A stretch of 64,000 nt of DNA, taken from the NCBI GenBank assembly GCA_964583525.1, contig CAZOXD010000001.1:47572-111571 (forward strand), read 5' to 3'. Shown piece after piece: positions 14,661-30,741 of this stretch (positions are counted from its first letter, which is position 1; each line of letters starts with the position of its first letter). This DNA is from an uncultured Pseudomonadota bacterium. Lineage in GTDB: Bacteria > SAR324 > JACQKK01. Both the position numbers and the translations under genes were made by a program. The notes below the pieces were generated by a model, which saw only the letters and a program-made list of their open reading frames with translations, was not told the origin of the DNA and ran no database searches.

Positions 14661-14745
14661 CTCCTGTTGGTTGTTTTGCAGTTCCTATCCGCGTTTATCG
14701 GCGTTCATCGGCGGTTCTAATGCTGTTGTTTTTCGCAGTTTCAAT

Positions 14746-15939
14746 TCACAGGAGCCGCCCCGGCCCGTCGTCCAGAATCCCGAACAAGTCGTCGTCCAGG
14801 ATGAAGTCCTGATAGATCTGCGAGCCGTCCACCTGGATCGCCGAGCGGCCCCGATCCAGGTCGATCTCGTAGCCCATCACCCGCCAGGTGAAGGATGAGT
14901 TCACCCCGAGGTACCCGTCCACGATGCGCACCGTCTCCCCGATCTGCCGGGCCAGCGGCGTCAGCGCGCCCTCGATGCGGTATTTCTCGTAGGGGCTTGA
15001 AGCGAAGTCCACCAGCCGCTCGGCCAGGTTCTGCGCGGTGGCGCTGCTCACGTACCAGATGCTCTCGTCGCGCTCCACCTCCTCGCGCAGCCCGAAGGAG
15101 TTCACGGATGCGATATTGACGCCGAAGGTGGCGATGGTGTGATAACGCGAATCCACGTCGTAGGCGGCATAGACCCACTGCTTGTTGACTATCGCCTGAT
15201 CGTCGATCTCCAGCGTGATCCCCATGGCTGTGTCGTCGTCGATCAGCGTCTCGTGGGAATCGGCCTCGGCGAAGCGGAAGAACCCCAGCTTGTTGTTCTC
15301 CACAAAGATGGCTGAATTGGTGACCCGCCCCAGCCGCCGCAGGGCGTCGTTGACCTTCACCCCGTCGAAGCGCGCCTTCATGAAGACGTTGTCGCCGCTC
15401 CACACCCCGGCCCATGTCTCGAAGCTGGGGTAATCGATGTCCTCGTTGGCCGCGTCGCGGGAATCCACCAGGCCCCCATAGCAGGTGACCAGCGTCCAGG
15501 CGATCTCGGAGGGCAGGTAATCGGTATCGGTGAAGGTCACCGGCTCGTCCGAGGTGCCCACCACGGCTTCGGCGAAGTCCTTGATCTTGTCCAGCATCTG
15601 CAGGTTGACCAGCCCGCGCGAGTATTTCACCTTGTCCACCCGCCCCGTGAAGACGTCGATCAGCTCGTCCCCGGAATCGGGGTGCGTGAACCCGATGCTT
15701 ACCTTGCACTCGCTGCGCAGGTGGGTCTTGTCGTCCTTGAAAAAATTGATCTCCTGATCCTCGTTGCTCAGGTCGATCGACAACGCCACGGGCCGGATAT
15801 CGTTCCAACTGCGGGCCAGCCGCGGCCAGCGCAGCACCCGGCCGGAATAATCCGAATCCCCGATGGTGAAGACCCGCTTGGGCGCAGAGGTCTTCTCCGC
15901 CGTCTGATCCACAAACCACGATGTCACCTGGTAGGCCAT
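14746..15939 (-). CDS. Phage tail protein (distal tail / tip candidate)
   Basis: 397-aa ORF downstream of tape measure and the 117-aa gene; positional assignment. Confidence 0.5.
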   Translation of the reverse strand: MAYQVTSWFVDQTAEKTSAPKRVFTIGDSDYSGRVLRWPRLARSWNDIRPVALSIDLSNEDQEINFFKDDKTHLRSECKVSIGFTHPDSGDELIDVFTGRVDKVKYSRGLVNLQMLDKIKDFAEAVVGTSDEPVTFTDTDYLPSEIAWTLVTCYGGLVDSRDAANEDIDYPSFETWAGVWSGDNVFMKARFDGVKVNDALRRLGRVTNSAIFVENNKLGFFRFAEADSHETLIDDDTAMGITLEIDDQAIVNKQWVYAAYDVDSRYHTIATFGVNIASVNSFGLREEVERDESIWYVSSATAQNLAERLVDFASSPYEKYRIEGALTPLARQIGETVRIVDGYLGVNSSFTWRVMGYEIDLDRGRSAIQVDGSQIYQDFILDDDLFGILDDGPGRLL

Positions 15940-16369: not shown

Positions 16370-18352
16370 TCAGACCCCTCCCCGGCCGCGCTGGGCGAAG
16401 TTGGGCCTCACGCCGCTGCGATCCAGGTTGTCCAGCGCCTTGATGATGGGCCCGGCCACGATCTCGCGCATGTCGCGGTCGTCCATCCGCATCAGGGTGT
16501 CGAAGTTGGTGGCGTTCTCCAGAATGTGGACGTTGAGGTTTTCAACGGTGATGGATGAGCCTCCCCCGCCCCCCTGTCCCCGCAGGAAGGCCGTCAAGTC
16601 CCGGTTTTGCAGGGGGGAGAGCACCCTTTCCCCCTGTTGCAGCAGGAAGGTCTGCTCGGCGGGCACGCTGGTCAATCCTCCATGCGCCGCGGGCGGCTTC
16701 TGCTTGGAGATCATCGCCGCGTTGGCCAGGCCCTGCGCCACGGCCGCGGCCGCCAGCACGTAGCTCAGCGGGGGCGGCGCGCTCGCCAGCGCCTTGGTGG
16801 CCGCCAGATAGGTGGCGATGATGGTCTGCCCGTAGGCCAGCGCCTTGTAGAGCTTGAAGGTCTTGGCCCCGCTCACCCGCGCCAGCGCCGCGAAGCCCCG
16901 CAGCGCCGTCTGGCTCTGCGCCAGCCGCGCATCCAGCGCCGCTTTTTCGATCTCCAGGATGGCCCGGTTGTGATCCTCGATGACGGCCTGTTCCAGGGAG
17001 TGGTTGCCCGCCGCCGTTTCCATGCGGCGCTGGAACTGCTCGTTTTCCAATACGAGCCGCCGATCGAAGTCCGTGACCATGTTCTCGAAGGCGATCTGGC
17101 GCATCAGGTCTTGTTGCTCCAGGTTGCGCTGCGCCGCAGCGGCTTCCATGGCTTCCACGAACCCGGCGAATTCGCCTTGTTTCGCCAGGACTTCATTCTG
17201 GTATTGCTCCAGCCGGGCCAAGCGGGAATCGTTGGCCTGCTGCTCGATGAGGGCGGCTAAGTGCGCGAAACTGGATGCCTCGGCGGCCAGTTCCGCATTG
17301 GTCTGGGCGGTGGCGGCGATCCTGGCGCGCTCGGCATCCACCCAGGACTGCACCCGCTCTTCGGCCACCCGCACCTCATGGGCGAGCAGCCCGTCCGCCA
17401 TTTTCTGTTGCGCCTCCAGCGCCGCCTTGCTGACGAGCGTGACCTGCGCCTGTTTGGCCGCGACCGCCCCCAGCGTTCCCCCAAAGTCGCTGTAGGCCAT
17501 GTCCGCTTCCCGCGTGGCCTGGGCGTTCTCGCGCAGGGTATCAATCCCGGCCCGCATCAGCCGGTAGGCCGCCGCGGTGGGGGGAAACCATTTCAGCCAG
17601 GCGTCCAGCCAGGACAGGATTTCATCCCGGTGCTCGCGGTAGAGGAACACGCCGTCCTCCATCACCTTGAAAAGCTCGGTGAGGGCGGGAATCACCTCGT
17701 CCGCTGTCTCCTTGCTCAACCCCCCCAGGGCGCTGTTGAGGCCCAGCAGGGCGTCGTTGAAGCGCGACGCGGCCTCGGCGTCGTCGGTGCCGATGACGAT
17801 TCCCAGCCGTTCGGCTTCCTCCCCCGCCTTTTTGAAGCCCGCCGCGCCTTGCGTCATGGTCTGCAAGAGCGCCACGCCCTCGGAATCGAACAGCTTGAAG
17901 GCCAGGCGCACCTTGTCGCTGTTGCTTTCCACGCCGTGCAGGGCCTCGGCGAAGGTGCGCAATTGCTCGTCGGGGGTCATCCGGCCCAGCTTCTCCGCGT
18001 CCAGGCCCAGCTCCCGGATGGCGTCCTTGGCCTCGCCGGTGCCCACGGCGGCCTCCCCCACGCGGCGCGTCATGCGCTGCAGGGCCATGTCCAGCGTAGC
18101 CGTGGCCACCCCGGAAAGCCGGGCCTGGAAGTGCAGCTTGCTCAGCTCCTCGGTGGTCAGCCCCAAGCGCTGCGAGGTCTTCAGCGCGGCGTCCTCGGAC
18201 TTGGCGAACCTGTTGGCGAGAGCGAACACAGCCGCACCCGCCGCCGTGGCCGCGGCCGCTACCAGCGTGATCTGCCCGCGCAGGCCCGAGAAGCCTTTGG
18301 AGAACTCGTCGCGCGCCCGCAGCGAGAATTCGATTGTGTTGCCCAGCGCCAT
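16370..18352 (-). CDS. Tail tape measure protein
   Basis: 660 aa, Ala/Gln-rich coiled-coil repeats (LEQQDLMRQIAFENM...) and a hydrophobic C-terminal region; sits after the chaperone and frameshift pair. Confidence 0.8.
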   Translation of the reverse strand: MALGNTIEFSLRARDEFSKGFSGLRGQITLVAAAATAAGAAVFALANRFAKSEDAALKTSQRLGLTTEELSKLHFQARLSGVATATLDMALQRMTRRVGEAAVGTGEAKDAIRELGLDAEKLGRMTPDEQLRTFAEALHGVESNSDKVRLAFKLFDSEGVALLQTMTQGAAGFKKAGEEAERLGIVIGTDDAEAASRFNDALLGLNSALGGLSKETADEVIPALTELFKVMEDGVFLYREHRDEILSWLDAWLKWFPPTAAAYRLMRAGIDTLRENAQATREADMAYSDFGGTLGAVAAKQAQVTLVSKAALEAQQKMADGLLAHEVRVAEERVQSWVDAERARIAATAQTNAELAAEASSFAHLAALIEQQANDSRLARLEQYQNEVLAKQGEFAGFVEAMEAAAAQRNLEQQDLMRQIAFENMVTDFDRRLVLENEQFQRRMETAAGNHSLEQAVIEDHNRAILEIEKAALDARLAQSQTALRGFAALARVSGAKTFKLYKALAYGQTIIATYLAATKALASAPPPLSYVLAAAAVAQGLANAAMISKQKPPAAHGGLTSVPAEQTFLLQQGERVLSPLQNRDLTAFLRGQGGGGGSSITVENLNVHILENATNFDTLMRMDDRDMREIVAGPIIKALDNLDRSGVRPNFAQRGRGGV

Positions 18353-18979: not shown

Positions 18980-19945
18980 TCAATACGCGGCCTGTGCGTT
19001 GCCCAGGATCACCTGCAGGCCCGTGGCCGAGTTGACCGAGTAGACCCCGGCCGCCGAGATCGAGACCTCCATTTCGCCCGGCCCGCCCGCCAGCGGCTTG
19101 AACTCTTTGTAGCGCAGCAGCGGCGCCTTGATGGTGCAGATCTCGTTGTAGCCGCTCTGCACCGCGGTGGAGCCCTCGAAGTGGAGGATCAATTCGCGCT
19201 CGGCCTGGGTGAGAAACTGCTGGTACTCGTCCTGATCGTCGAACTTGAGCGTCCCGTCGATGCTGATGGCCCGGGAGCCCGTGCGCTTGACCCGGCTGGG
19301 CACCTTGGAATTATTGAGGGTGTGCATCGCTTCGAGCTGTTCCTCGATCTTCACGGTGAACTGGGTGAACTGATCCACCGCCGCGCCGCCCAGTTGGGAA
19401 GATCCCTGATCCCACGTCCAGAGCTTGTTGGTGGGGTAGCTGGCCGCCGCCGCCACCACCTGGGAGTAGGCCCCGCCCACGATGCCCAGCTTGGCCTTGA
19501 GCAGCTCCCCCGCGCTGATGTTCAGCTCCAGCGAGGCCCCCACCAGATCCTGGTAGAGGAAGGCGCTGCCGGCGTCGTCCATGTATTTTTGCAGCGTGAA
19601 GGGGTTGCCCGCGGACAGCTTGTCGAAGTCGCTCGTCCTCGGCTCGAAGGTGTGGGTGTAGAGCGCGTCGGAGGTGACCGTGGCGGGCGGCCCCAGCACC
19701 GCTTTCAGCAAAACGCCCAGGGAAACCGGGTCGGCTTCCATCTCGATCTCCCCGGGGATGGAGGTGGGCCCCTCGTAATAGTCCCCCTCGTCGAAGATGC
19801 CCCGCATGCCCTGCGCCACCAGGGGCGGCTTCTCAATCCCCACGCCCTCGCTCAGGGCGGGCAGCCAGAAGTAGCTGTCCTGATTGAGCGTCCCGTAGCT
19901 GTTCTGGAAGCTCAGCCCCAGCCTGAAGTTCTGTCCGTAGCTCAT
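18980..19945 (-). CDS. Major tail (tube) protein
   Basis: 321-aa ORF immediately upstream of the chaperone and frameshift pair; no sheath gene present, so a siphovirus-type tail. Confidence 0.6.
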   Translation of the reverse strand: MSYGQNFRLGLSFQNSYGTLNQDSYFWLPALSEGVGIEKPPLVAQGMRGIFDEGDYYEGPTSIPGEIEMEADPVSLGVLLKAVLGPPATVTSDALYTHTFEPRTSDFDKLSAGNPFTLQKYMDDAGSAFLYQDLVGASLELNISAGELLKAKLGIVGGAYSQVVAAAASYPTNKLWTWDQGSSQLGGAAVDQFTQFTVKIEEQLEAMHTLNNSKVPSRVKRTGSRAISIDGTLKFDDQDEYQQFLTQAERELILHFEGSTAVQSGYNEICTIKAPLLRYKEFKPLAGGPGEMEVSISAAGVYSVNSATGLQVILGNAQAAY

Positions 19946-20151
19946 GTTGCCTCCTCGTTATCCGCCTGCGTTTTGGACTGCGCTTTGCCGGGCTTTTGCG
20001 CCAGGCGTTGCTCTATATAATTGTCGGCCAGTTCCACCGGCAGGGTTTTCTTTTCGCCGGGCCGGGCCATGCCATGGCCGGGAATGAACTTCTCCTCGCC
20101 CGTCCAGACGATTTCCCGCGTCATGCGGGGCGCTCCGATCTTTTCGCTCAT
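19942..20151 (-). CDS. Small hypothetical head-tail protein
   Basis: Internal start MSEKIGAPRMTREIVWTGEEKF... inside track ORF 19942..20466; 4-nt overlap with the neighbouring gene. Confidence 0.4.
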   Translation of the reverse strand: MSEKIGAPRMTREIVWTGEEKFIPGHGMARPGEKKTLPVELADNYIEQRLAQKPGKAQSKTQADNEEAT

Positions 20152-20600
20152 GCCGTCCTCTTCTCGCATTGAATGGAAATCATGGAGTACTGCACCCGCA
20201 GCGTCTCCGAATCGAACTCGTTGAAGCCGTCCTCCACGGTCAGCCCGGTCACCTGATCCACCGTGCCGCCCAGGGTGAAGTCGGTTTTGAGGGCGTTCAG
20301 CACGTCGGTCTCGTACTCGCAGAGCAGATCCTCGGCGTCCGCGCCGTCCTTGTAGCTGGCCGCCAGCACGATCACCCGGAAGACCAGCTCGCCCTTCAGG
20401 TTGCGCCCGCCGCTGGCGATGGTGGCCGGATCGTACTCGACGCCATCGCGGTAGACCCCGATCCACGGCGCGGCCTCGGGGTTCATCTCCGCGAAGTTGG
20501 CCCGCTCCACCTGGTAGGGCTTTCCGTCGTCCGTGGCCGGGGGAAGCTGATCCTCCAGCAGGGCCACGATGGCCTTGGTGATATCGGCCCGGTTGATCAT
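20148..20600 (-). CDS. Phage head-tail joining / tail completion hypothetical protein
   Basis: 150-aa ORF in the connector block; translational coupling overlaps on both sides. Confidence 0.45.
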   Translation of the reverse strand: MINRADITKAIVALLEDQLPPATDDGKPYQVERANFAEMNPEAAPWIGVYRDGVEYDPATIASGGRNLKGELVFRVIVLAASYKDGADAEDLLCEYETDVLNALKTDFTLGGTVDQVTGLTVEDGFNEFDSETLRVQYSMISIQCEKRTA

Positions 20601-21139
20601 ATGCGCTTCCCGATCGGTTTCATGGCGTGCAGCCCCTTGCGCAGGTTGCGCTCGAAAATTTTCCGGATATCGTTGCGCACCTCGCTGTGTTTGGGCAGCA
20701 GCCGCCGTTCGGGCAGATCGCCCAGCCCCTCATGGTGGGCCTCGGCGTAATCCAGGTCGGAGCCGATGCCCGCGTTATTGGCCGTGGCGAAGGGGACAAA
20801 GCTGAGGCGCAGCCGCCCGGTGTCCTGCAAAATCTTGAAGCGCGCGGCAGCCAGCGGCACGGCGCCGCCGAAGCCCCGCACGTTGCGGACGCCCCGGAAG
20901 TTCCCGCCGCGCAGGTTCTTGCGAATGCGCCCCAGCACCGTCGCCGGCGCCAGCGGCTCCCAGCCGCCCACGTTCCCGCCCTCGGAGCGGAAGTTCTTCT
21001 GCACCCACCTGTCCAGGAACACCGCCGCCTGCTTGTAGCTGGTGTTTACCCAACTGCGCTTGAGCCCCTTGAGCGCCTTGTCCGTGCGCGCTTTGAGCAC
21101 GGCGGCGGGGGGATCCATCTTCATTTCAATGCGGGGCAT
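20597..21139 (-). CDS. Phage virion morphogenesis (head-tail) family protein
   Basis: 180 aa, ...WEPLAPATVLGRIRKNLRGGNF...AARFKILQDTGRLRLSFVP..., resembles the virion morphogenesis/gpS-like family. Confidence 0.45.
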   Translation of the reverse strand: MPRIEMKMDPPAAVLKARTDKALKGLKRSWVNTSYKQAAVFLDRWVQKNFRSEGGNVGGWEPLAPATVLGRIRKNLRGGNFRGVRNVRGFGGAVPLAAARFKILQDTGRLRLSFVPFATANNAGIGSDLDYAEAHHEGLGDLPERRLLPKHSEVRNDIRKIFERNLRKGLHAMKPIGKRI

Positions 21140-21147: not shown

Positions 21148-21606
21148 CTAATCACGCGCGTTCTCCTCGTCGTTGACCATGTCCGAGTCCACCCGGAAGG
21201 CCAGGGTGTCGCCGTGGCCGAAGATGGGGTGGTAGTTCGCCGTGTTGGAGAAGGCCGCCCCGCCGCCTCCGGAGGCCGCCAGTTGGGTGCCGTCGTCGAG
21301 CACCATCACTTCGCGCCCGGCGATCAGGGCCTCGATGCGGGCCTCGATGGCGTCCTGTATCGCCTTGGCCTTTTTGCCGTCGTGGGGTCTCTGCCAGCGG
21401 GCGTAGACCAGATCGACGGTCAGATCCTTGGCGGTGAGGTTGGTGGGCGTAAAGGGCGCGGTGAAGTACGCGCCCAGCTTGGCGTCCAGCTCCAGCTCGG
21501 CCGGGGCGATCCAGGCGGAGTCCACCCGCGCCGCGTCGGAATCCACCCGGCTCAGGGACGGATAACGCGCCAGCACGTCCGCGCTCCAGCTTGCGTAGGT
21601 TCCCAT
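21148..21606 (-). CDS. Head-tail connector protein (Mu gp36/DUF1320-like candidate)
   Basis: 152-aa ORF first after the GT gene in the connector block. Confidence 0.4.
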   Translation of the reverse strand: MGTYASWSADVLARYPSLSRVDSDAARVDSAWIAPAELELDAKLGAYFTAPFTPTNLTAKDLTVDLVYARWQRPHDGKKAKAIQDAIEARIEALIAGREVMVLDDGTQLAASGGGGAAFSNTANYHPIFGHGDTLAFRVDSDMVNDEENARD

Positions 21607-21619
21607 GGCTCAATTTCCG

Positions 21620-21683
21620 CGCGGGCAAGCCCGCGTCCAGCCCTCCCCTCTCCCGTTTGCGGAGAGGGGTTGGGGGTGAGGTT
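21620..21683. repeat. Conserved structured intergenic element, copy B (gggcaagccc hairpin + cccctctccc-gtttgc-ggagagggg hairpin + gggggtgaggtt)
   Basis: Matches copy A at ~55 of 63 positions; sits between the GT gene stop and the connector gene start. Confidence 0.6.
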
Positions 21684-24600
21684 TCACCAATACTTTCCGC
21701 CCAGATCGGCGGTCTTGTTTTCAATGGCCTTGCGCGCCAGCAGTTGCAGGTCTTCCACGCTGGCGAAGTACCCCTCCACCGCCGAGACGTCCGCGGGCTT
21801 GCCGTTGAACTGCATGGCCGCGTCCACCCCGAAGGCCGCCTCGAAGCCCTCCCCCAGCACCCGCGCGTGGTTGGAGTAGAACTCCACGGCGTCCTTGGCC
21901 CAGCGCACAAAGCCGCCCTCGGCCAGTTCGCGCCACAGGGCGATGCCCTCCCGGGCCCGCTCCATGACGGCCTCGGTGATCACCATCCCGTTGCGCTGCA
22001 GCTCGTAGCGGTTCACGTGCTCCAACTCGCGGATCCACAGAAACTTGGCCAGGTTGCGCTCGGGATACTTCTCGCGGTCGCGGATGAAGAGCGGGTGATT
22101 GCGCTGAAAGCGCTTGAGGCGGGTGGACTCGTCGTCGTAGCCGTCGTGGGCCACGGTGATCTCCGGAGGCAGCGCCATCGCCCAGCCCTGGCCCTCGTTC
22201 AAGCCCGTCTCCGGGTGCTCGTGCACCATCCCGATGAAGCGCATGCCGATGTGGTTGCGGAATATCTTGGCCGGCAGGTCGATCTTGTCGATGCCCAGCG
22301 GCTCGAAGCCATAGTGCACCTGGCGCATGGCGTAGGCGTTGAATTGGTTGGGGCGCAGGTAGAGCGCCAGGGTTTCCGCCCCGTGCAGCACCTCGTCGTG
22401 ATCGAGCCAGAGAATCCACTGGCAGGACGCCCGCTCCACCGTGGCGTTGCGGGCCTCGTCGAAGCCCACCTCCAGCGGAGACTTGCCGGGGAAGATCCGC
22501 ACGGCGATATCCGGGTAGTCCTCCACAAAGGCGTGGATCACATCCTCCGTGCGATCGCTCGTCGTCTCGTCCAGGGCGATCACCAGCTCGTCGATGATGG
22601 GCGCCGCGCTATCCAGGCAGCGCCGCAGCCGCGCCTCGCCGTCTTTCACGATCATGGCCAGGGTCACGGTCTCGCGCGGGGCCTGCACGGAGAACTTGCG
22701 GGCCATGTCGATGGCGCGGCTGCCTTCCGTGGGCTTGGCGTAGTGGGTGACAAAGCTCCCCAGCGCCTCCCCCCGCGCGGTCTGGCCCGCCGAGGTCATC
22801 ACGATCCCGAAATCCGGGTGATGGCCGAACATCTCGAACAGGTCGGCGCGCTCCAGGTGGTGCAGGTGCGCCCGCCAGGGATGGTGCTGGCGGTACTTCT
22901 GCCCTTCCCAGGGCCCGAAGGGCGTGGTGATCACCATCCGCCCGCCTTCCTTCAGGGACTCGGCCAGCCTGTCGGCCAGGGCGCCCGGATCGTTGACGTG
23001 CTCCAGCACCTCGGCGGCGATGATCAGGTCGAAGGGATCGGCTAAATACCGCATGGGTACTTCATCGCCGAACAGGAACGCCACATTCTTCACATCGTCT
23101 TTTTCCCTCCAGGCCTTGGCCTTCTCGATGTTGGAGGCCACCAGGTCGATCCCGATGAACTCCAGCTTGGGGAAGCGCTTGGCCAGGTTGATGGTGTAAT
23201 GGCCGTGGGCGCAGCCGTAGTCCAGCACCCGCGCTCCCTCGGGCAACTGCCCCACGTGGCGGGCCACCGTCTCGTAGCGGGCGTTGCCGTCCAGTTCCTC
23301 CGGCCCGTACTCCATCCCGCGCTCCGCCTCGTAGCGGTAATAAGCCGCGTAGTGCCCGGCGAAGGTCTCCTCCCGCGCGAAGGCGTAGCACTCGTCCAGG
23401 TCGGCCTCGATCCTGGCGGCCACGGGATGTCCGCCCCAGTGCGGGCTATCCTTCAGGTCATTCGGCGTGGCTTTGATGGCGCGTTCCAACACCTTGATGT
23501 CTGAGAGCCGGTGCAGGTGCTTGCCCACGGCCACGGAGTTGGAGGTCTTAGCGGCGAGGATCTCCGCCACCGTTTCCTCGAAGACGTCCGCCGAGGTTTC
23601 CCAGGTGTGGGGGAAATGCCGGGGGACGCTCATCCCGGGCGAGGTCAGGGCAATCTGTTCCATGAACGCGTCGATGTCCGGCCCGCCGTTCTTCAAGGGA
23701 ATCAGCCCCGCGCCGTCGTACTCGTCCACCGTATCGGGCAGCGCCCCCACGTCCGAGGCGATGATAGGCAGCCCGGCCGCCATCGCTTCCATGGCGGAGA
23801 TGCAACTGGTTTCCTCGAAGTCCGATGGGTAGACCCAGGCGTCGGCGCAGCGCTGCACGCCGGCCAGTTCGGCCTTGGTGAGATAGCCCAGGGCGGTGCA
23901 GTTGGGCAGCGCCTCGATACGGCCCCACAACTCGCGGTAGAGAGGCGCCATCTCGGGCGTGGTGTTGTCGTAGCCGCAGACAAACAGGTGGTAGCGCGGG
24001 GCATCCGGACTCATGGACTCGCTGCACGCCAGGCGCTCCATGATGCCGTCCGGGGCCACCAGGTGTTCCAGGCCGCGCTCCGGACGCGAGACGTAGATCA
24101 GCTTGACCACGTCCCCGCCGCCGCCATGGTGCAGCTTGACCAGATCGCGCATCCGCTCGGCGATGTTATTGGTGCCGGACTCGATCTTGCCCTCGTAGAG
24201 CGCCGGGTCGATCCCGTTGGGGAGCGGCTTGACGATTTCCGGGCGCACGCCCCAGGCCTCGGCCACCTGCAGGCCGTGCCAGGCCGACACCGGGAGCAGC
24301 GCGTCCACGTTCCAGAGCGATTGCGCGGCCAGGGAGCGCAGGCGTTTCCGCGCCAGGTCGTGCAGCCAGAGCAGGTTGCACTTGGAATTCCAGGCGAAGG
24401 CGAACCCCAGCGGGTTGCGCTGGATGACGATCGCGTCGTTTTGCAGGTAGCGGGCCCGGTAGTGAAAGGCCTCGCCCAGCGGCTTCTCGGGGCTGACCGC
24501 GCCGTGATACACGTAGGTCACGCCATCCCAGCGGCCTTGATCGCGGCTGCTGGTGAACACGGTCACGTTGTGATCCCGCGCCACCAGTTCCCGCGCCAGG

Positions 24601-24692
24601 TAGTAGGCCGCCGACTCCGATCCGCCCAGCGACTGCTGGGCAATCGTCTCTCCGTTGAAGGGCATCCCGCCCGCATGAATCGTGATGAACAT
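21684..24692 (-). CDS. Three-domain glycosyltransferase-methyltransferase: GT4 (group 1) glycosyltransferase + class I SAM-dependent methyltransferase + GT2 glycosyltransferase, ~1003 aa, embedded in the phage structural module
   Basis: GT4 N-terminus (MFITIHAGG...GGSESAAYYLARELVARDHNVTVF); MT motif (VLDYGCAHGHYTINLA...FDLIIAAEVLEHV); GT2 (LAMIVKDGEARLRRCLDSAAPIIDELVIALDETTSD...WILWLDHDE). Start chosen at the internal Met of track ORF 21684..24767. Confidence 0.75.
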   Translation of the reverse strand: MFITIHAGGMPFNGETIAQQSLGGSESAAYYLARELVARDHNVTVFTSSRDQGRWDGVTYVYHGAVSPEKPLGEAFHYRARYLQNDAIVIQRNPLGFAFAWNSKCNLLWLHDLARKRLRSLAAQSLWNVDALLPVSAWHGLQVAEAWGVRPEIVKPLPNGIDPALYEGKIESGTNNIAERMRDLVKLHHGGGGDVVKLIYVSRPERGLEHLVAPDGIMERLACSESMSPDAPRYHLFVCGYDNTTPEMAPLYRELWGRIEALPNCTALGYLTKAELAGVQRCADAWVYPSDFEETSCISAMEAMAAGLPIIASDVGALPDTVDEYDGAGLIPLKNGGPDIDAFMEQIALTSPGMSVPRHFPHTWETSADVFEETVAEILAAKTSNSVAVGKHLHRLSDIKVLERAIKATPNDLKDSPHWGGHPVAARIEADLDECYAFAREETFAGHYAAYYRYEAERGMEYGPEELDGNARYETVARHVGQLPEGARVLDYGCAHGHYTINLAKRFPKLEFIGIDLVASNIEKAKAWREKDDVKNVAFLFGDEVPMRYLADPFDLIIAAEVLEHVNDPGALADRLAESLKEGGRMVITTPFGPWEGQKYRQHHPWRAHLHHLERADLFEMFGHHPDFGIVMTSAGQTARGEALGSFVTHYAKPTEGSRAIDMARKFSVQAPRETVTLAMIVKDGEARLRRCLDSAAPIIDELVIALDETTSDRTEDVIHAFVEDYPDIAVRIFPGKSPLEVGFDEARNATVERASCQWILWLDHDEVLHGAETLALYLRPNQFNAYAMRQVHYGFEPLGIDKIDLPAKIFRNHIGMRFIGMVHEHPETGLNEGQGWAMALPPEITVAHDGYDDESTRLKRFQRNHPLFIRDREKYPERNLAKFLWIRELEHVNRYELQRNGMVITEAVMERAREGIALWRELAEGGFVRWAKDAVEFYSNHARVLGEGFEAAFGVDAAMQFNGKPADVSAVEGYFASVEDLQLLARKAIENKTADLGGKYW

Positions 24693-24806
24693 CTTCCCTG
24701 ATGCTCCCGGTTTGGGCCGCCTCCCCATTGACAGGATAGGCGACGAATTAGATAATTTTCTTAGCATTCAAGCCAAGGATGGCTCCCTCATTGGAAAGGA
24801 TTCCTC

Positions 24807-25025
24807 ATGCTGAAAATGCCCTCGAAATCCATTGCTGTTGGTGTCACGTTTACGGTTGCCGGCTTCTCGCTCGGCACCCTCGCCTCCTTGAACGGCCGTG
24901 AAGATTGCGATCCCATCCACAACCTCTGCGATGCTAAATCCCGTATGGATTATTCGATCCATAGGGATCGGGCCGCGGAGTTTTGGGATACTTCGGCGTT
25001 CGCAGTTTTCACCCCCTTTAAATAG
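24807..25025 (+). CDS. Putative moron: small membrane protein on the opposite strand in a lower-GC islet
   Basis: 72 aa with a hydrophobic segment IAVGVTFTVAGFSLGTLASL; opposite orientation to the late operon. Confidence 0.3.
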   Translation: MLKMPSKSIAVGVTFTVAGFSLGTLASLNGREDCDPIHNLCDAKSRMDYSIHRDRAAEFWDTSAFAVFTPFK

Positions 25026-25034
25026 CCTCGGCTC

Positions 25035-25511
25035 TCAAGCCTGCGCCTTGGGGGAGATTTCCTCCCAGACGGCGTCGCGTTCCTCCGCCGTCACGGGCGG
25101 CGAGAGCGAGGTGAGCGCGTTGATGCGGGCCACGTCGGGCTTGCCGTCCTTGCCGAAGCCCTCCCCGCCCGCCAGCATCTGCGCGATGGAGATGGCGATG
25201 GAGCCGAGGCGCTGGGCGGCGTCGCGATCGGTGACAGCATCGTCTCGAACCAATGAGATTTTCTCCAAACGCTTATTCAAGCCGTCCATTCCTTTCACGG
25301 CCTCCTTGCGTTCGGCGCGCAACCTGGTCAGCTCGTACTTCTCCTTCCCGGAAAGGGGCGCGCCTTTCGCCGCGTTGAGGTTACGCGCCTGCTCGGCGGT
25401 AAGTTTGGCGGGCAGCAGCCGCTCGCCGGTGAAGCCGAAATCGGCCGGGTTTTCCTTCAGCGCCCTCAAGGCCGCTTTCCGGTTCGGATCCTTCCAGTGC
25501 GGTGTCAACAT
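25035..25511 (-). CDS. Hypothetical phage head protein
   Basis: 158-aa ORF between the major capsid and GT genes. Confidence 0.45.
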   Translation of the reverse strand: MLTPHWKDPNRKAALRALKENPADFGFTGERLLPAKLTAEQARNLNAAKGAPLSGKEKYELTRLRAERKEAVKGMDGLNKRLEKISLVRDDAVTDRDAAQRLGSIAISIAQMLAGGEGFGKDGKPDVARINALTSLSPPVTAEERDAVWEEISPKAQA

Positions 25512-25575: not shown

Positions 25576-26538
25576 TCAAGAGCTCGACGTGGTGTTGGTG
25601 ACCAGGGCGATCAGAGGCTGGGAGACGATCTTCTCGTCCTGGTAATAGCCCACCTCCACCTCGTCGCAGTGGCGGCGAGTATCGTAGGGGTGGCGCTCCA
25701 CCTGCCGGTTGGGAAGCCCGGGGGCGGCCCAGCGGAAGCGGTAGCCCGCGCTCGGGGTCTGCGTGGAAGGCGCGTCCGGCGCGTAATACAACGCCACGTG
25801 ATCGGCCCAGATGCGATCCAGGCTCATGGCGATCGCTTCTTCGGCCGTGTTCTTGTAGGCCCCGCCCACGATGATCTCCATTTCCAGCACCGCCTCGGCC
25901 TGCTGCACACTGGGGTAGATTCCACCCCCCGTCACGTTGGGGTTGGTGGACTTGTCGATCACGGATGCGTTGCGGCGGAAGTTCCGCCAGGCTAGGCCGG
26001 AGAAGACCGCCTTGTTGGGGCGGTAGCCCGTGGCGTCCTCCACCTGATCGATCTTGGTGAGCAGGTCGTTGATGGGATCGGAGTTGCTGAAGTCCGACCA
26101 GGCCGACCCCACCGCCGCATAGGTGCCCACATTGGCGAGGGTCAACATCAGGGCGGCCACGCGGATTTCCTCGTCCAGCGCCAGACCGTCCATCACCCGG
26201 TTGACCCGCCCTTCCTCGAACTGCTGGATGAAGATGGGATCCATGTTGGCCCGGTCTTCGATGGTCACATCGGCCTTCAGCGCGTAGTTATCGCAGTGGA
26301 AGCCGTCCGAGGAGACGCGCGAATGGATCTTGTTGGCCTCGCCGCCACGGGAGCGGCGGGTGTTTTCCTGGCGGAACAAGTCCGCCTGCTCGAAGATCAC
26401 GTACTTGTCGGTCTGCTTGGGCACCGTCACCAGCGGGAAAACCCGGTCGGCGATAAAGCCCATGGGCCGATAGTTGATCGCGATTTGCGAGAGGTGCTGG
26501 TCGATGTGCAGCTCCCGTCCAGTTCCGTATGCTGACAT
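25576..26538 (-). CDS. Major capsid protein (DUF2184/E-like family candidate)
   Basis: 320 aa following protease/scaffold and DUF2190 genes; paralogous to 51653..52660 (shared motifs NYRP.GFIADR.FP, FIQQFEEGR, W.RNFRRN..VIDK.TNP.V.GGG.YPS, PYDTRRH). Confidence 0.65.
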   Translation of the reverse strand: MSAYGTGRELHIDQHLSQIAINYRPMGFIADRVFPLVTVPKQTDKYVIFEQADLFRQENTRRSRGGEANKIHSRVSSDGFHCDNYALKADVTIEDRANMDPIFIQQFEEGRVNRVMDGLALDEEIRVAALMLTLANVGTYAAVGSAWSDFSNSDPINDLLTKIDQVEDATGYRPNKAVFSGLAWRNFRRNASVIDKSTNPNVTGGGIYPSVQQAEAVLEMEIIVGGAYKNTAEEAIAMSLDRIWADHVALYYAPDAPSTQTPSAGYRFRWAAPGLPNRQVERHPYDTRRHCDEVEVGYYQDEKIVSQPLIALVTNTTSSS

Positions 26539-26939
26539 TATGCCACCTCCCCTGAGTCGCCCATATAGGCTACGGTTGCGAAATTGAAGGCCCCGGTGCC
26601 CACGGCGCCGGAACCCACGGCGGTATCCAGGCAGCGTCCCACCACGTAGGAGCCGCTGTTGGCCTCGATCATGTAGCCCGAGGTGGTCACCGTGAGGCGC
26701 TTGCCCTTGGCGACGGCCGCGCCGGCCGTGAACTTCATGATACCGGCGTAGCCGAGGGTGATGTGCTCGCCGTTCTTGCCGCCGTAGAGCAGCAGGCCTC
26801 CGGCCTCGCGGCCGTTGGCGGCGGGCTTCCCGTCATCCAGGGCGATGGCCTTGAAGATGTCGCCGCTGCCCGGGGTCAGGTCGTTCACGTCCTCCCCGGC
26901 CGCCATCGTGTGGGTGAAAAATCTTCCTTCGACGCTCAT
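26538..26939 (-). CDS. DUF2190-like phage head protein (decoration/accessory)
   Basis: 133 aa, Gly/Ala-rich, located between protease/scaffold and capsid, as is typical for DUF2190. Confidence 0.45.
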   Translation of the reverse strand: MSVEGRFFTHTMAAGEDVNDLTPGSGDIFKAIALDDGKPAANGREAGGLLLYGGKNGEHITLGYAGIMKFTAGAAVAKGKRLTVTTSGYMIEANSGSYVVGRCLDTAVGSGAVGTGAFNFATVAYMGDSGEVA

Positions 26940-26941
26940 GA

Positions 26942-28270
26942 TCAGGCCCTCCCGTCAGAGATGTTGGCGGTGTAGCCCCGGTATTCCCGGGCCAGTTGCG
27001 GGTTGGCCCGCATCACCAGTTGCGATGCCTTGGAGTAGGAAATGTCCTTCTCCGCCATCAGGGCGTTGGCCTTCTCGGCCAGCTCGTCCGAGGCGTCGCG
27101 GGTGGCGTCGTAATCCTGGCCTCCCCGATCCTCGCTGAGACCCTGCTCGCCTCCGGGCTTGCGCTTGCCCCCGGCGTTGGCGAAGGTCTTCACCTCCTCA
27201 ACGTCGATGGTCTCCACCCGGGCGTCGTCGGCCAGGCCGATCGCCTTGGAGAACGCCTCGCGCTGCGCAGGGATAATGCTCCCGGCCTTGACGCCTTCCT
27301 CCAGGGCGGCCTCGACCTCGGCCCGTTTGGCCACGATGGCCTGTTTCTTTTCGGCTTCCACGCGCTCGCTTTCCTTGCGCGCGAACTCCGTGGTTTTGGC
27401 CTGTTCCTCCTCCAGCTTGCGCTGGGATTCGGCCAGTTGCGCCTTCAGAGCTTCTTCGCTCATCTCGATATCTCCTTCGTTGTTGTTGGTTTTCGCGGAA
27501 AATTCCTCGTTGTAATCGAGGGCCTCGATCTCCCAATTGGGCAAGACCTCGTCGGCCTTTTCCATGCCCTGCTCCGCGATGATCCATTCCCGGATCCCGC
27601 GCAGCACGCGCATCAGCGCATCGGTCTGCCCGTTGGAGAGCGCGAGGCGGATCTGCTCGGCTGGCTTCTTCCCGGTGATGCCCGCCGCGTGGGCGAGTTT
27701 CCCGAGAGGAAGCTCTTTTATCGCAAACAGCCGATCGAGCAGTTTTCCCGCGTCTGCTTCCGGTTTGTTGGTTTTCACATCGCCCTCCAGGGGCTTGTGG
27801 TTGATCGCGGTGAAGACCATCCTCCGACCCCCGGCAGGCCCGGTTTGCGAAAGATATTCGGTCAGATCCGCGAGGTTGTTGACCGCGGGCAATGTGGCCC
27901 CCAATAGGGCCACGCCCGACAGCACGTACTTGTAATCCTGTCCCTTATGCCGCGCGTCCATATCCAACTCCACTGACACGGTGCGGTAGGCGCGGCTGGC
28001 GATGGCGTCCCCCACCACGTCGGGGAGATCGATAAAGTGGGCCAGCAGCTTCTCGCCTTCCACCCACACCTTGTCGACCCACCCCAGGGCCGGCATGCCG
28101 TCCGTGAGCGGTTGATCCTCATCGTGGCCCAGCTTCAAGGGCACCTTTCGGACTTCCTTCAGCGCCTCGAAGTTGGCCGCGATGGCCTCCAGGTCTTCCA
28201 CGGTGAACGGGTAGCCGTTCCAGGTGCCCACCGCGAAGATCTCCGCGTCCTGCTCATGCGTGAATTTCAT
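26942..28270 (-). CDS. Mu I-like prohead protease fused to scaffold (coiled-coil C-terminal half)
   Basis: N-terminal MKFTHEQDAEIFAVGTWNGYPFTVEDLEAIAANFEALK resembles Mu-like prophage I protein; C-terminal EEALKAQLAESQRKLEEEQAK coiled coil. Confidence 0.65.
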   Translation of the reverse strand: MKFTHEQDAEIFAVGTWNGYPFTVEDLEAIAANFEALKEVRKVPLKLGHDEDQPLTDGMPALGWVDKVWVEGEKLLAHFIDLPDVVGDAIASRAYRTVSVELDMDARHKGQDYKYVLSGVALLGATLPAVNNLADLTEYLSQTGPAGGRRMVFTAINHKPLEGDVKTNKPEADAGKLLDRLFAIKELPLGKLAHAAGITGKKPAEQIRLALSNGQTDALMRVLRGIREWIIAEQGMEKADEVLPNWEIEALDYNEEFSAKTNNNEGDIEMSEEALKAQLAESQRKLEEEQAKTTEFARKESERVEAEKKQAIVAKRAEVEAALEEGVKAGSIIPAQREAFSKAIGLADDARVETIDVEEVKTFANAGGKRKPGGEQGLSEDRGGQDYDATRDASDELAEKANALMAEKDISYSKASQLVMRANPQLAREYRGYTANISDGRA

Positions 28271-28389: not shown

Positions 28390-30741
28390 TCATCCAAATC
28401 CGTCCTGGGGTTCGACCGCGGGGCCGTCGCTGGCTTCCCAGGCATCGTCCCGGGTCACCGCGATCAGCACCGAGCGGCATTGAAAGTGATTGGGCGGGCG
28501 GTAGTTGGGGCGGCCCGTCCAATATTCCGAGTCCATCTCGTAAACCTTGCCGTCCAGCTCGCGGCAGATGGCCGTGGTGCGGCCGTCGAGGATGGCCGAG
28601 TATTCCTGGGCTTCCACGTACCCCTCCAGTTCCGGATCGGCGAAGAAGGAGTAACGCGCCTCGTTGACGGCCTCGAAGAGATTGGTGCGCACCACGTTCA
28701 CCAGCCGGGCGTCGGGGTTGACGGTCTCCAGCACGCGGCGCAGGCGTTCGCGGGCGGGCTCGTCCAGGTCGTCGGCGATCGCCTCCTGCGCTTCCGCGCC
28801 CAGCATCCCTTTCCGGGAAAGCTCGGTGTAGATCTCCTCCACCATTTCCTCGGTGGTAGCCGTGGTCTTGATGCCCTTGGAGAGGATGTTCCTGATGGTG
28901 GCCAGGGCGTCCTCGCTCAGCTTGCCGGCCATGGCGAAGCTCTTGGAATCGAAGAACGCCGCCGCCGCATCCTCGATGCCGGCCATATCGATGCGCTGGG
29001 CGAACTCCGCTCCGCGCCGGGCCTTGGCGATCTCGTCCCGGGCGTGGCGCCGGCCCAGCCCCCAGCCCTCTTCCAGCATCTGGCGCAGTCCCTTGCGGAG
29101 CCGGGTCACGTCCTTGGCGGCGAAGCTCAACGCGCCTATGGCTTCCACGTCTCCATCGATCTGTCCCAGCTGCTTCCCGCGCACGATGGCCGCCAGGGCG
29201 ATCACGGCCCGGCCCATGGCGGCGCTGGCGGCATCGACGCCCGTTGCCTCCAGATCCCCCGCTCGCTTATCGATCACGGCGAAGTCCACCCGCCGCGCCG
29301 CCCGCGTGAACGCCCGCGCGTTGATGTTGGAAAGCGCGGCCCGGGAAAGCCCGCTGATGGTGATGTTGGCCTGGGCGCTGACGGACTCCTCGCCGGGGGC
29401 GTCCGCGGGCGGCTCCACCTCCGGCCCTTCGGAGCCCGGCGCTTCCGGAGCCGCGCCGCCCGGCTGCTGGCCGGGCCCTTGGGGGCTCACCTTGAGGGGC
29501 TCGCCGCGGGGCGGGAAACCCATCATATCGCGCAGGTGCTCCTCGTCGGTGTCGGACGGAACCACCGATCCGGCGGCGACAGCGTCCTTCCAGGATTTGA
29601 TGAGGCGCTCCAGCAGTTCCACCGAGGCAGGCTTGAACTTGAACTTGGGATAGATCCCGTCTCCCCAGTTGAGATCCCCCAGATCGCGCCAAAGCTGCTC
29701 GTCCAGGGTTTCCTCCAGCCGCCCGGCGTCGGCTTCCAGGCTCATCAGGAAGGCTTCCAGTTGGGTCTGGCTCTGGGAATAGCTGCCCGTCTGCCCCTGC
29801 TCGCTCAGGCCCAGCAGGTTGGGCACCAGCAGCGCCTTGCCGATGCCCTTGTCGCAGCGGGCGATGCGCTCGTCGTAGGCCACCTTGGTCTGGGGGTGTT
29901 TGGTTTCCAGGTCGATCCCGTTGGGGAGCAGCAGCCAGGTCTTGCTGTTGATGTTGGCCATCATCTCCTTCAACGTAGCCAACTCCGCGCTGCCTTCGGT
30001 GATGTTGCGGCTGCCATCGGGCTTGAGGATGATAAACCCGGCCGCGTGACGCTCCATCCAGATATTCCAGAACTTGATCACCATGTCCTTGGAGAACCAG
30101 TCCCGGTAGGCCTCGCGCAGTTCGCTCTGGCCGTAGTGCTCGTCGATGTCCGGATTCTGCACGTAATGGATGAAGCGGGCCGCATCGATCTCGATCTCCT
30201 GGCCGCCCACCCGCTGCACGATCTTCTCGATGTTGCCGTGCTTGTCGGTGTGGAACTGGAAGGTGTGCGCCGGCCGGGCCTTGAGCCGTTCCAGGCCCCA
30301 CCAGGTCTTGCCCTCGTGCTCGATTTGTCCGTAGACCTTCTCTGTCAGCGAGAAACCGTTGATCATCCCGGCCATCACGCCGTTGAGGGCGTCGCGGAAG
30401 CTGCCCTTCATCTCCGACACGATGCGCTCGCAGATCGCGATGCGGCGCTCGCTCTCCTCCTCGCCCAGGGCCTCGTCGTCCAGTTGGAAAAACCAGCTCC
30501 GCGCCGTGATGGCGTCGCGCCGGAACTTGACCACCGCCTTCACCTGCTCGTCCAGCATCATTTTGCGGTAGATGGCTGCGCCCTTGCGCCCGATCAGGTC
30601 GTCCGGGTTGTACTTGGGGAAGTCCCGTGCGGAGTAGATGCGGCTGTCCGCCCAGGCCACCTCGCCCATGGGCGGCGCTTCGGGCTTTTCCGTTGCGAAG
30701 AAACCCCGCACTCCGCTGGCGATGCTCCGCAGGGCGCTCAT
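28390..30741 (-). CDS. Portal protein (DUF935, Mu gp29-like) fused to Mu F-like head morphogenesis domain
   Basis: N-terminal DUF935-like region; C-terminal SAILDGRTTAICRELDGKVYEMDSEYWTGRPNYRPPNHFQCRS matches the Mu F / SPP1 gp7 family. Confidence 0.75.
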   Translation of the reverse strand: MSALRSIASGVRGFFATEKPEAPPMGEVAWADSRIYSARDFPKYNPDDLIGRKGAAIYRKMMLDEQVKAVVKFRRDAITARSWFFQLDDEALGEEESERRIAICERIVSEMKGSFRDALNGVMAGMINGFSLTEKVYGQIEHEGKTWWGLERLKARPAHTFQFHTDKHGNIEKIVQRVGGQEIEIDAARFIHYVQNPDIDEHYGQSELREAYRDWFSKDMVIKFWNIWMERHAAGFIILKPDGSRNITEGSAELATLKEMMANINSKTWLLLPNGIDLETKHPQTKVAYDERIARCDKGIGKALLVPNLLGLSEQGQTGSYSQSQTQLEAFLMSLEADAGRLEETLDEQLWRDLGDLNWGDGIYPKFKFKPASVELLERLIKSWKDAVAAGSVVPSDTDEEHLRDMMGFPPRGEPLKVSPQGPGQQPGGAAPEAPGSEGPEVEPPADAPGEESVSAQANITISGLSRAALSNINARAFTRAARRVDFAVIDKRAGDLEATGVDAASAAMGRAVIALAAIVRGKQLGQIDGDVEAIGALSFAAKDVTRLRKGLRQMLEEGWGLGRRHARDEIAKARRGAEFAQRIDMAGIEDAAAAFFDSKSFAMAGKLSEDALATIRNILSKGIKTTATTEEMVEEIYTELSRKGMLGAEAQEAIADDLDEPARERLRRVLETVNPDARLVNVVRTNLFEAVNEARYSFFADPELEGYVEAQEYSAILDGRTTAICRELDGKVYEMDSEYWTGRPNYRPPNHFQCRSVLIAVTRDDAWEASDGPAVEPQDGFG

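Follow-up and report, generated by a model that had tools for sequence, protein, structure and literature searches.

The stretch of DNA analysed here, referred to as the window, comprises 64,000 nucleotides from an uncultured Pseudomonadota bacterium (GTDB lineage Bacteria; SAR324; JACQKK01; contig CAZOXD010000001.1) and carries a prophage of about 43 kb that lies between host metabolic genes. Within the head module of this prophage, next to the gene for the major capsid protein, is a gene for a single polypeptide in which a family 4 glycosyltransferase (GT4), a class-I S-adenosylmethionine (SAM)-dependent methyltransferase and a family 2 glycosyltransferase (GT2) are fused. The enzyme gene, its domains and the capsid gene are as follows, in positions of the window.

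21684..24692, minus strand: GT4 - SAM methyltransferase - GT2 fusion gene (open reading frame, Pfam, homologue alignment)
23643..24692, minus strand: GT4 domain (GT-B fold, retaining-type), residues 1-350 (Pfam PF13439, PF00534, PF13692)
22848..23282, minus strand: class-I SAM-dependent methyltransferase domain, residues 471-615 (five Pfam models)
22053..22676, minus strand: GT2 domain (GT-A fold) of the GmaR/SunS/ThuS type, residues 673-880 (profile against PDB, NCBIfam)
21687..22052, minus strand: C-terminal helical bundle and small alpha/beta unit, residues 881-1002 (AlphaFold2 model)
25576..26538, minus strand: major capsid protein, 320 aa, HK97 fold (phrog_1005, E 1.6e-60), the most likely acceptor; tail ...ALVTNTTSSS
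25579..25596, minus strand: last six capsid codons, N-T-T-S-S-S, candidate glycosylation site

The longest form of the open reading frame (ORF) that ends at 21684 on the minus strand begins at an ATG at 24767 and would give 1027 aa. The start of the gene is instead the ATG at 24692 (MFITIHAGG...), as the residue matching this methionine opens 25 of 25 aligned full-length homologues, while the version that is longer by 75 nt at the 5' end runs into a near-consensus promoter on the opposite strand. The gene is thus 21684-24692 and its product is a soluble protein of 1002 aa plus the stop codon, the size that had been claimed in the first-pass annotation, which was made from the letters of the sequence alone. 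An identical copy of the protein is present in public data (P0001); its DNA lies on a 3.9-kb Logan contig, and a second, larger contig is on record for it.

All three domains score above the curated Pfam cut-offs, which bears out their original assignment, and a search of PHROGs gives the same domain picture. In the GT4 domain, Glyco_transf_4 matches residues 23-164 and Glycos_transf_1 / Glyco_trans_1_4 match residues 231-346 (PF13439, 40.5 bits against a cut-off of 28.5; PF00534, 42.8 against 26.4; PF13692, 45.6 against 27). The alignment of homologues shows the invariant motifs GGSE (23-26) and RPERGL (203-208) together with the E-x7-E nucleotide-sugar motif that is diagnostic of GT4 enzymes (E294...E302, FEETSCISAMEAMAAG), in which E302 is invariant and E294 nearly so among 26 homologues. 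The methyltransferase is matched by Methyltransf_23/31/25/12/11 at residues 476-611, best by Methyltransf_23 (78.2 bits, E 7.5e-22); its motif I, VLDYGCAHGH (489-498), has D491, G493 and A495-H498 invariant, and AAEVLEHV follows at 558-565. Glycos_transf_2 covers residues 680-789 of the GT2 domain, whose motifs are D-x3-T-x-D, GF-x2-ARN, W-x-D-x-DE with the DXD residues D764/D766, HEHPE (824-828), H-x-GY and RF-x-RN. No Pfam family covers residues 881-1002; this part is conserved across the enzyme family and, on the structural model, is a candidate acceptor-binding domain. The catalytic motifs are kept in 26 full-length homologues at 43-50% identity, with 62 invariant columns in the GT4, 35 in the methyltransferase and 38 in the GT2 domain. 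Conservation is therefore roughly equal among the three, which suggests that all three activities are under selection. As had been noted from the sequence, the protein has no transmembrane (TM) segment: the maximum of a 19-residue Kyte-Doolittle window is 1.38, with none above 1.6. An amphipathic membrane anchor is likewise absent from the enzyme.

Relatives of the GT2 module were sought by searching a profile of the family against all PDB sequences. The best solved relative of the module is GmaR (E 1.1e-24 to 1.8e-24 over about 190 residues), with SunS at E 1.4e-20 and ThuS at E 6e-19, whereas ordinary GT2 enzymes of polysaccharide and teichoic-acid synthesis reach only about 1e-5. The motifs that the module has in common with GmaR, SunS and ThuS extend over the whole GT-A domain (D-x3-T-D, F-x2-ARN, DWI-x2-IDADE, R-[IL]-F-[RK]-N, VHE-x-P, H-x-GY and RN). 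In the same search the other two domains had generic relatives, namely retaining enzymes such as MshA (3c4q, 1e-11), GlgM and PimA/B for the GT4 module, and 3mgg and WbdD (1e-5) for the methyltransferase, a generic class-I enzyme. An AlphaFold2 model of residues 655-1002 (mean predicted local distance difference test score, pLDDT, 84.6; predicted template-modelling score, pTM, 0.78) consists of a GT-A fold, a helical bundle and a small alpha/beta unit. When this model is compared with the PDB by Foldseek, places 1-6 are all taken by SunS/ThuS structures (7msp, 7msk, 7msn) at E 6e-16 to 1.4e-14, in alignments of 300-380 columns that extend past the GT-A core and place the helical domain in a like arrangement; the next fold follows at E 3.7e-8, and polysaccharide GT2s lie at 1e-5 to 1e-8. 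In NCBIfam, TIGR04195, the SunS family of peptide S-glycosyltransferases, is the sole GT2 family among the best 25 of 56 matches (E 3e-14), with a score of 52.6 bits that is below the family threshold of 350. By these comparisons the GT2 module is related to the SunS/ThuS and GmaR families without belonging to either. GmaR is a flagellin O-GlcNAc transferase, whose N-terminal ~180 residues move N-acetylglucosamine (GlcNAc) onto flagellin (PMC9638930). The transferases of glycocins carry out O- and/or S-glycosylation of peptides (PMC12457901, PMC8620827), and enterocin F4-9 bears beta-O-GlcNAc on Ser and Thr (PMC8620827).

The domain combination had been called unusual for a phage head module, and this is correct for cultured phages: tblastn against 50,697 phage records returned no full-length match to the enzyme, only matches to single domains at about 25-38% identity; megablast of 22 kb of the structural region found no nucleotide match to cultured phages, and the best cultured relatives of the capsid protein are below 32% identity. 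In metagenomes, by contrast, the combination is common and the gene is far from the one-off that it had seemed. In a search of 5.8 billion proteins, full-length relatives of about 960-1050 aa at 42-50% identity fell into at least 120 clusters; the matches extend over 99-100% of the query in nearly all cases, and many come from contigs of 40-54 kb. An exhaustive search of 1.84 billion representatives gave 571 clusters (at 50% identity) with E <= 1e-30; full-length proteins account for most of the top 150, and a few representatives of 1250-1560 aa have extra N-terminal parts. In IMG/VR, 214 loci contain the enzyme gene.

Homologues in other phage structural modules, for which a search had been recommended, are plentiful, and almost always they directly follow the same capsid family. 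The 80 IMG/VR loci that were fetched agree, as far as each contig extends, in the order portal - protease - 133-aa protein - capsid - [enzyme] - 152-aa protein - Neck1 - terminator - tube - tape measure. With the window's own short contig (L001) added, which makes 81 loci, 73 have the capsid gene upstream of the enzyme gene, among them every locus that reaches far enough in that direction, and tblastn places the 152-aa gene downstream in 54. The same tie is seen from the other side: among 65 further loci picked by their capsid alone, the enzyme gene is downstream in 55, eight are too short, and the two that lack it are one and the same phage, which leaves 55 of 57 evaluable loci with the enzyme. 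Taken together, about 128 of the 130 related loci that could be evaluated show this linkage of enzyme and capsid genes, and contigs of metagenome-assembled genomes (MAGs) have the same gene order. Pairwise identities of capsid and enzyme are correlated (Spearman 0.61 over 1770 pairs from 60 loci, pairs that are not independent of one another), which fits long joint inheritance. The MAG labels of the relatives are mostly Proteobacteria, SAR324 and 'Deltaproteobacteria', and the hosts appear to span several phyla. The enzyme gene belongs to the conserved core of a phage lineage without cultured members, and the observation is both real and more general than could be seen from the window alone.

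The neighbours of the enzyme gene agree with its original placement between capsid and head-tail connector genes, as the capsid protein (phrog_1005), Neck1 and the tail terminator are each recognized. The prophage is flanked on one side by aldehyde and 2-oxoacid ferredoxin oxidoreductase genes (up to 12345) and on the other by tetratricopeptide repeat (TPR), adenylate cyclase and thiolase genes (from 57557), and the window holds no tRNA gene. The other neighbours, all on the minus strand and given in transcription order, are the following.

38996-39439, minus strand: helix-turn-helix (HTH) repressor
38660-38986, minus strand: superinfection-immunity protein
37210-37785, minus strand: CHAP lysin
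35640-36110, minus strand: DUF1804 (small-terminase-like)
33880-35427, minus strand: large terminase
Between large terminase and portal, minus strand: five small genes and the gene for a 462-aa repeat protein
28390-30777, minus strand: portal fused to a Mu F-like domain
26942-28270, minus strand: protease/scaffold
26538-26939, minus strand: 133-aa head protein (phrog_673, E 1.6e-10; found in 52 related loci)
25035-25511, minus strand: 158-aa gene, between the capsid and enzyme genes
21148-21606, minus strand: 152-aa gene, directly downstream of the enzyme gene, which opens the connector block in all relatives
20597-21139, minus strand: Neck1/tail completion (phrog_26, E 5e-18)
20148-20600, minus strand: tail terminator (phrog_4204, E 6e-7)
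18980-19945, minus strand: tail tube
Between tail tube and tape measure, minus strand: chaperone
16370-18352, minus strand: tape measure
Down to about 12986, minus strand: four distal tail genes

The enzyme gene lies within the late head-tail block, and about 14 kb separate it from the genes for the repressor and the immunity protein. The 133-aa head protein is annotated as scaffolding and is possibly a cement or decoration protein; the 152-aa protein has no family match in PHROGs or in the Pfam/NCBIfam scans. The head module is of the Mu type (Portal_Mu with Mu F fusion, DUF1804 and a 3bjq-like capsid), and the early region holds a DDE (rve) transposase-like gene and two AAA_22 ATPase genes (44168-45838, 46748-47746 and 48220-49245, plus strand); in combination these genes hint at a transposable phage. 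The label of a Mu-like transposable prophage was downgraded, since the gene order is not that of Mu. The early region also encodes a FliW homologue (40927-41457, plus strand; Pfam FliW, E 3.7e-34), which is preceded in overlapping layout by a gene of 343 aa and followed by one of 93 aa. FliW is a flagellin-binding assembly factor, and its presence is notable beside a GmaR-like domain of the same prophage; in the IMG/VR relatives no FliW homologue was found by a search that is sensitive to close relatives only.

The enzyme gene had been described as part of a translationally coupled operon, and in this respect the first reading does not hold. Upstream there is a gap of 342 nt (24693-25034), which contains an ORF of 72 aa on the opposite strand, and downstream a gap of 77 nt (21607-21683) with hairpins. 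The features of the upstream gap are two.

24807-25025, plus strand: 72-aa antisense ORF, with an AAGGA ribosome-binding site and one hydrophobic, signal-like segment
24728-24756, plus strand: sigma-70 promoter of the 72-aa ORF (TTGACA-17-GATAAT, 11/12 match)

The antisense ORF is likewise called as a gene on an independent Logan contig and has no family match; from its sequence features it looks like a moron expressed from the prophage. The downstream gap holds a perfect 9-bp stem-loop (CCCCTCTCC-GCAAAC-GGGAGAGGGG) and after it a second GC-rich hairpin with no T-run, which could be an RNA-stability or attenuation element. No riboswitch or known RNA family was found in the gaps around the enzyme gene, nor does the minus strand carry a separate promoter for it. 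An insertion of host DNA with its own mobile ends had been named as one finding that would undo a phage role. Such ends were looked for and rejected, as the flanks hold just short imperfect repeats of the kind expected by chance, and the GC content at third codon positions (GC3) of the enzyme gene is 0.89 against 0.87-0.90 in the neighbouring genes.

In the relatives, the gene content around the enzyme gene varies. Most of them have a small Lys-rich, Cys-free gene (55-89 aa) of one of three sequence types between capsid and enzyme; its products begin with MALTPH..D.NR or MLRDDAI.., and some copies have a helix-extension-helix / Rho_N-like C-terminus. The 158-aa protein at this place in the window shares with them just the N-terminus MLTPHWKDPNRKAAL (motif MLTPH..D.NR) and has no Pfam, NCBIfam or strong PHROG match. 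Glycan-type genes are also found here. Three relatives (L060, L071 and L080) have an extra GT4-like gene of 316-347 aa in the gap between capsid and enzyme, two (L026/L027) have a pair of paralogous SAM methyltransferases at the same site, L217 has there a 319-aa Glycos_transf_1 protein (9250-10209) with a radical SAM gene downstream (14266-14949), and L218 has a 419-aa sugar C-methyltransferase-like gene (10297-11556). From their predicted functions, these genes suggest lineage-specific elaboration of the product, and a gathering of glycan-tailoring genes at one site is expected of a diversifying, variable glycan locus. On the other side of the enzyme gene, many relatives carry an insert of 2.5-5.5 kb before the 152-aa connector gene (L002, L003, L004, L005, L007, L011, L015-L017, L022-L024, L035, L036, L047, L049, L053, L061 and L063), which the window phage is without. 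The typical layout of the insert is a protein of about 175 aa that overlaps the enzyme stop codon, several of 140-260 aa, one large protein of 420-1070 aa and one of about 90 aa. Genes for sugar nucleotides or further glycosyltransferases were looked for in inserts of 3-5 kb and rejected, as Pfam showed none and PHROGs gave just weak 'tail fiber' matches; the inserts may be head fibres or decorations.

The first-pass annotation had left two functions side by side, virion glycosylation and the modification of a host glycan in lysogenic conversion. Of these, modification of a protein, most likely a virion protein, is favoured over that of a host glycan. In favour of this reading are the grouping of the GT2 module with GmaR, SunS and ThuS and not with polysaccharide GT2s, the linkage to the capsid gene, the lack of a promoter of its own, the matching GC3 and the lack of mobile ends. 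In its full form, the reading is that the enzyme acts late and in the cytoplasm, where it would attach a methylated glycan to a virion protein, and we give this about an even chance of being correct. The three domains with intact catalytic motifs, the position of the gene, its linkage to and co-divergence with the capsid gene and the kinship of its GT2 module are observed; the function is read from sequence and fold comparison, from which we infer that a glycan is formed, which donor sugars are used and in what order the enzyme acts, as well as the protein and residue modified and the benefit to the phage. According to this scheme, the C-terminal GT2, a metal-dependent and inverting GT-A enzyme, would act with the helical acceptor-binding domain to put the first sugar on the acceptor protein, with a host uridine diphosphate (UDP)-sugar as donor and the hydroxyl of a Ser or Thr as acceptor, or the thiol of a Cys in some relatives. 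The N-terminal GT4, a retaining GT-B enzyme, would then add one or more further sugars, and the central class-I methyltransferase would O-methylate the glycan with SAM. The outcome would be a methylated glycan coat on the capsid, which may mask the surface, alter stickiness or stability, or protect from proteases and other binders.

The major capsid protein is the most likely target of the enzyme. An AlphaFold2 model of the protein (mean pLDDT 72) has the HK97 fold and is best matched in Foldseek by the capsid of a Bordetella prophage (3bjq, 1e-20), and also by lambda gpE, HK97 and Che8 (8e16). The chain ends in ...YYQDEKIVSQPLIALVTNTTSSS, where a hydrophobic stretch forms the last beta strand of the model and NTTSSS is a free coil. 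The tail motif of the family is V-[NTG]-S-[SVA]-[TQS]-COOH, with the conserved Ser corresponding to Ser318 in the window. In the 101 unique tails from 146 loci, the residue at position +16 after YYQDE is Ser in 91, Cys in two, Thr in two, Gly in one and Ala in one, and four shorter tails that end in ...SCA or ...SCAA have no +16 residue. Enzymes of the ThuS type accept Ser and Cys alike, and a Cys or Thr in place of the tail Ser would retain a glycosyl acceptor. The identification of the C-terminal Ser as the glycosylation site is tentative all the same, and we consider it rather more probably wrong than right.

Another protein mentioned at the outset was the 462-aa repeat protein (31045-32433, minus strand), which consists of about 16 tandem repeats of 21-22 aa (APPLGTFTLAGQVPAVAxGASV) in a region of 73% GC. 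It has no homologue in any related locus and a weak PHROG match; since the relatives do without it, it is unlikely to be a conserved acceptor.

Several observations weigh against a glycosylated capsid or its tail. Two relatives, L216 (tail FLMSGAVA) and L217 (tail VLVKDVD, with no Ser/Thr), keep the enzyme without the tail motif, and a third, L218 (tail YLLTGAWA), is also without the motif and has probably kept the enzyme. Conversely, two relatives that lack the glycosyltransferase, L215 and L219, still have Ser at the +16 position, and the Ser may therefore be conserved for structural reasons. With natural controls as mixed as these, the capsid tail is a candidate site and not an established one. 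The C-terminus of the tail tube was considered as a further acceptor and rejected for the window phage, in which it ends in GNAQAAY with no Ser/Thr tail. In addition, tblastn at E <= 1e-5 in the 50,697 phage records gives no homology between the enzyme and those of the mycobacteriophage glycosylation system that is compared below. Three-domain homologues of about 30% identity occupy cellular contexts in MAGs of Myxococcota, and multi-domain fusions of GT4, GT2 and methyltransferase also occur in polysaccharide pathways. The cellular homologues are full-length proteins of 27-33% identity in L092, L096 and L098 (Polyangiaceae / Myxococcales MAGs), beside genes for a response regulator, a TylF-like methyltransferase, a GT4, a further methyltransferase, a sigma factor and an aspartyl protease; judged by sequence, they may represent the cellular source of the phage gene.

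Two of the relatives without the enzyme, to which L206 also belongs, form a separate case. L215 (3432-15838) and L219 (4589-16831) are compact head-tail clusters of about 11-12 kb, with a capsid protein 59% identical to that of the window and the order terminase - Portal_Mu - protease - small head protein - capsid - connector - tube_2 - few tail genes. They lie at the same host position, after an aminotransferase gene and atpI/atpB/atpE, and have neither the enzyme gene nor a small post-capsid gene. No replication, lysis or integration gene is found among the called genes of the stretch read, and the cluster looks like a domesticated, gene-transfer-agent-like relative of the phage lineage.

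Among the alternatives to a virion protein, the one that survives best is the other half of the original proposal, a host glycan that is built or modified at the cytoplasmic face of the membrane, such as O-antigen, capsule, exopolysaccharide or another lipid-linked polysaccharide. This could take place in the lysogen, as lysogenic conversion, or at a late stage of infection, where it might for instance keep new phages from binding again to cell debris. A GT4, a GT2 and a methyltransferase are indeed the usual parts of polysaccharide pathways, generic polysaccharide GT4 and GT2 enzymes are among the weaker matches, the cellular clusters around the distant three-domain homologues look glycan-like (with another GT4 and TylF-like or other methyltransferases), and the prophage is temperate, as it encodes a repressor and a superinfection-immunity protein. 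The GT2 module, however, is 8 to 19 orders of magnitude nearer to protein and peptide transferases than to polysaccharide GT2s, the enzyme has neither a TM segment nor an amphipathic anchor that would hold it at the membrane, and its gene, with no promoter of its own, is inside the late structural block and away from the immunity and attachment regions. The tie to the capsid and the co-divergence with it across apparently several host phyla are also hard to square with a host-specific acceptor. On balance, we regard a host glycan as unlikely.

A host protein as acceptor, for instance flagellin or pilin, with an effect on motility or a block to other phages, is suggested by the fact that GmaR, the nearest solved relative of the GT2 module, glycosylates flagellin (PMC9638930), and by the FliW homologue encoded on the same prophage. 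Such an acceptor would leave the position in the late head operon and the capsid linkage unexplained, FliW was not found in the IMG/VR relatives (in a search that sees close relatives only), and the TPR and antirepressor parts of GmaR are absent, with about 120 residues following the GT-A core in their place. This possibility thus seems improbable.

Still less can be said for the maturation of a small secreted glycopeptide of the glycocin type, comparable to sublancin and its transferase SunS on the SPbeta prophage. SunS and ThuS are the best structural matches of the GT2 model, SunS is itself prophage-encoded (the enzyme matches SPbeta yolJ in tblastn), and a small gene adjoins the enzyme gene in most relatives. 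Yet the small Lys-rich neighbours have no paired cysteines or double-glycine leaders, the adjacent genes include no ATP-binding cassette (ABC) transporter/peptidase, no thiol-disulfide oxidoreductase and no immunity gene, the SunS family model gives 52.6 bits where 350 is the cut-off, and known glycocin systems are without GT4 or methyltransferase domains, all of which makes this explanation very improbable. Finally, glycosylation and methylation of phage DNA bases before packaging, in evasion of restriction, can be given the smallest chance of all. Modification of DNA is the classical role of phage glycosyltransferases, many kinds of DNA glycan have been described (PMC12619734), and late expression beside packaging and head genes is compatible with it. 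Against it, Pfam scans of most of the larger prophage genes showed no hydroxymethylase, thymidylate-synthase-like or other base-activating gene, the GT2 resembles protein transferases and has a helical acceptor domain of the protein type, and the phage-record, PDB and Foldseek searches gave no likeness to known DNA glycosyltransferases.

With glycosylation of a virion protein as the preferred reading, its consequences can be set out. To our knowledge, glycosylation of phage particles has so far been shown only for some mycobacteriophages, and a 2023 report by Freeman is said to have found little sign of it in other phages. Full-text searches turned up no paper on the enzyme family or on glycosylated virions in phages of this kind. 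If the enzyme glycosylates the capsid, a widespread lineage of environmental phages would have virion glycosylation as one of its conserved traits, with an independent origin from a protein-glycosylating GT2 related to flagellin and glycocin transferases. In its widest form, which is speculative and which we hold to be somewhat doubtful, uncultured phages of about 40-50 kb, mostly from MAGs of Proteobacteria, SAR324 and 'Deltaproteobacteria', would have as a core gene of the head module a vertically inherited glycan coat machine in a single polypeptide, whose SunS/GmaR-like module primes the C-terminal Ser (or Cys) of the capsid protein and whose GT4 and methyltransferase then lengthen and methylate the glycan. 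This would be the first virion glycosylation system outside phages of Actinobacteria, independent in evolution of the mycobacteriophage one, and glycan-coated capsids would be common in environmental phages. With a single gene and a single candidate acceptor, the system lends itself directly to testing how and why phages coat themselves with sugar, for which surface masking, stability, adhesion to particles or mucus and the avoidance of receptors on debris are possible roles. If one polypeptide can start a glycan on a protein, lengthen it and methylate it, it could also serve as a compact tool for the glyco-engineering of phage capsids and HK97-fold nanocages.

The enzyme can be compared with several known systems. 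Gtr-type modules of O-antigen conversion consist of an integral membrane glucosyltransferase and a flippase and usually lie near the attachment or immunity region; unlike them, the enzyme has no hydrophobic segment and sits in the late head-tail block. In E. coli O9a WbdA/WbdD and in ManT/MeT1 of the mycobacterial methylmannose polysaccharide, a GT4 and a SAM methyltransferase make methylated or methyl-capped glycans. The cooperation of a GT4 with a methyltransferase is common to these enzymes and the present one, and the methyltransferase domain has a weak match to WbdD (1e-5), but enzymes of these types act on lipid-linked or free oligosaccharides and their glycosyltransferase domains are not of the SunS/GmaR type. 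We know of none of these polysaccharide enzymes as a phage head-module gene.

A closer likeness is that to SunS and ThuS (7msn, 7msp, 7msk), which have the same set of GT-A motifs over the full length followed by a helical domain, act on protein or peptide acceptors and, in the case of SunS, are prophage-encoded. Unlike in SunS and ThuS, the module is here fused to a GT4 and a methyltransferase, identity is about 19%, and no glycocin precursor, transporter or immunity gene is near the enzyme. With GmaR of Listeria monocytogenes, the enzyme shares a GT2 module homologous to the N-terminal catalytic domain of that protein and, on the preferred reading, the cytoplasmic O-glycosylation of a self-assembling subunit of a surface polymer before its assembly. 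GmaR has 637 aa with TPR, linker and antirepressor domains (PMC9638930). These domains, about 460 residues, are absent here, where Pfam gives no TPR match, and GmaR is in turn without a GT4/methyltransferase fusion. In flagellin glycosylation islands, methyltransferases are often found together with a GT2 of this kind, for example in C. difficile (PMC4441256).

The mycobacteriophages provide the comparison for the virion itself. For Che8, Corndog and Myrna, Freeman et al. 2023, as summarised in PMC12619734, PMC11600133 and PMC12363180, are reported to have found glycans on the C-termini of capsid and tail-tube subunits, put there in the cytoplasm by phage glycosyltransferases whose genes lie beside an O-methyltransferase gene; the gene set of cluster O is described in PMC11600133. 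The present system differs in that the three activities are fused in 1002 aa and encoded in the head module directly after the capsid gene, that the relatives carry MAG labels of Proteobacteria, SAR324 and 'Deltaproteobacteria' and not of Actinobacteria, that the tail tube of the window phage has no Ser/Thr tail, and that glycosylation is here a prediction. Like the mycobacteriophages, however, it combines phage-encoded glycosyltransferases with a methyltransferase and an HK97-fold capsid protein with a C-terminal Ser/Thr tail, and the capsid of Che8 itself (8e16) is among the fold matches of the window capsid model.

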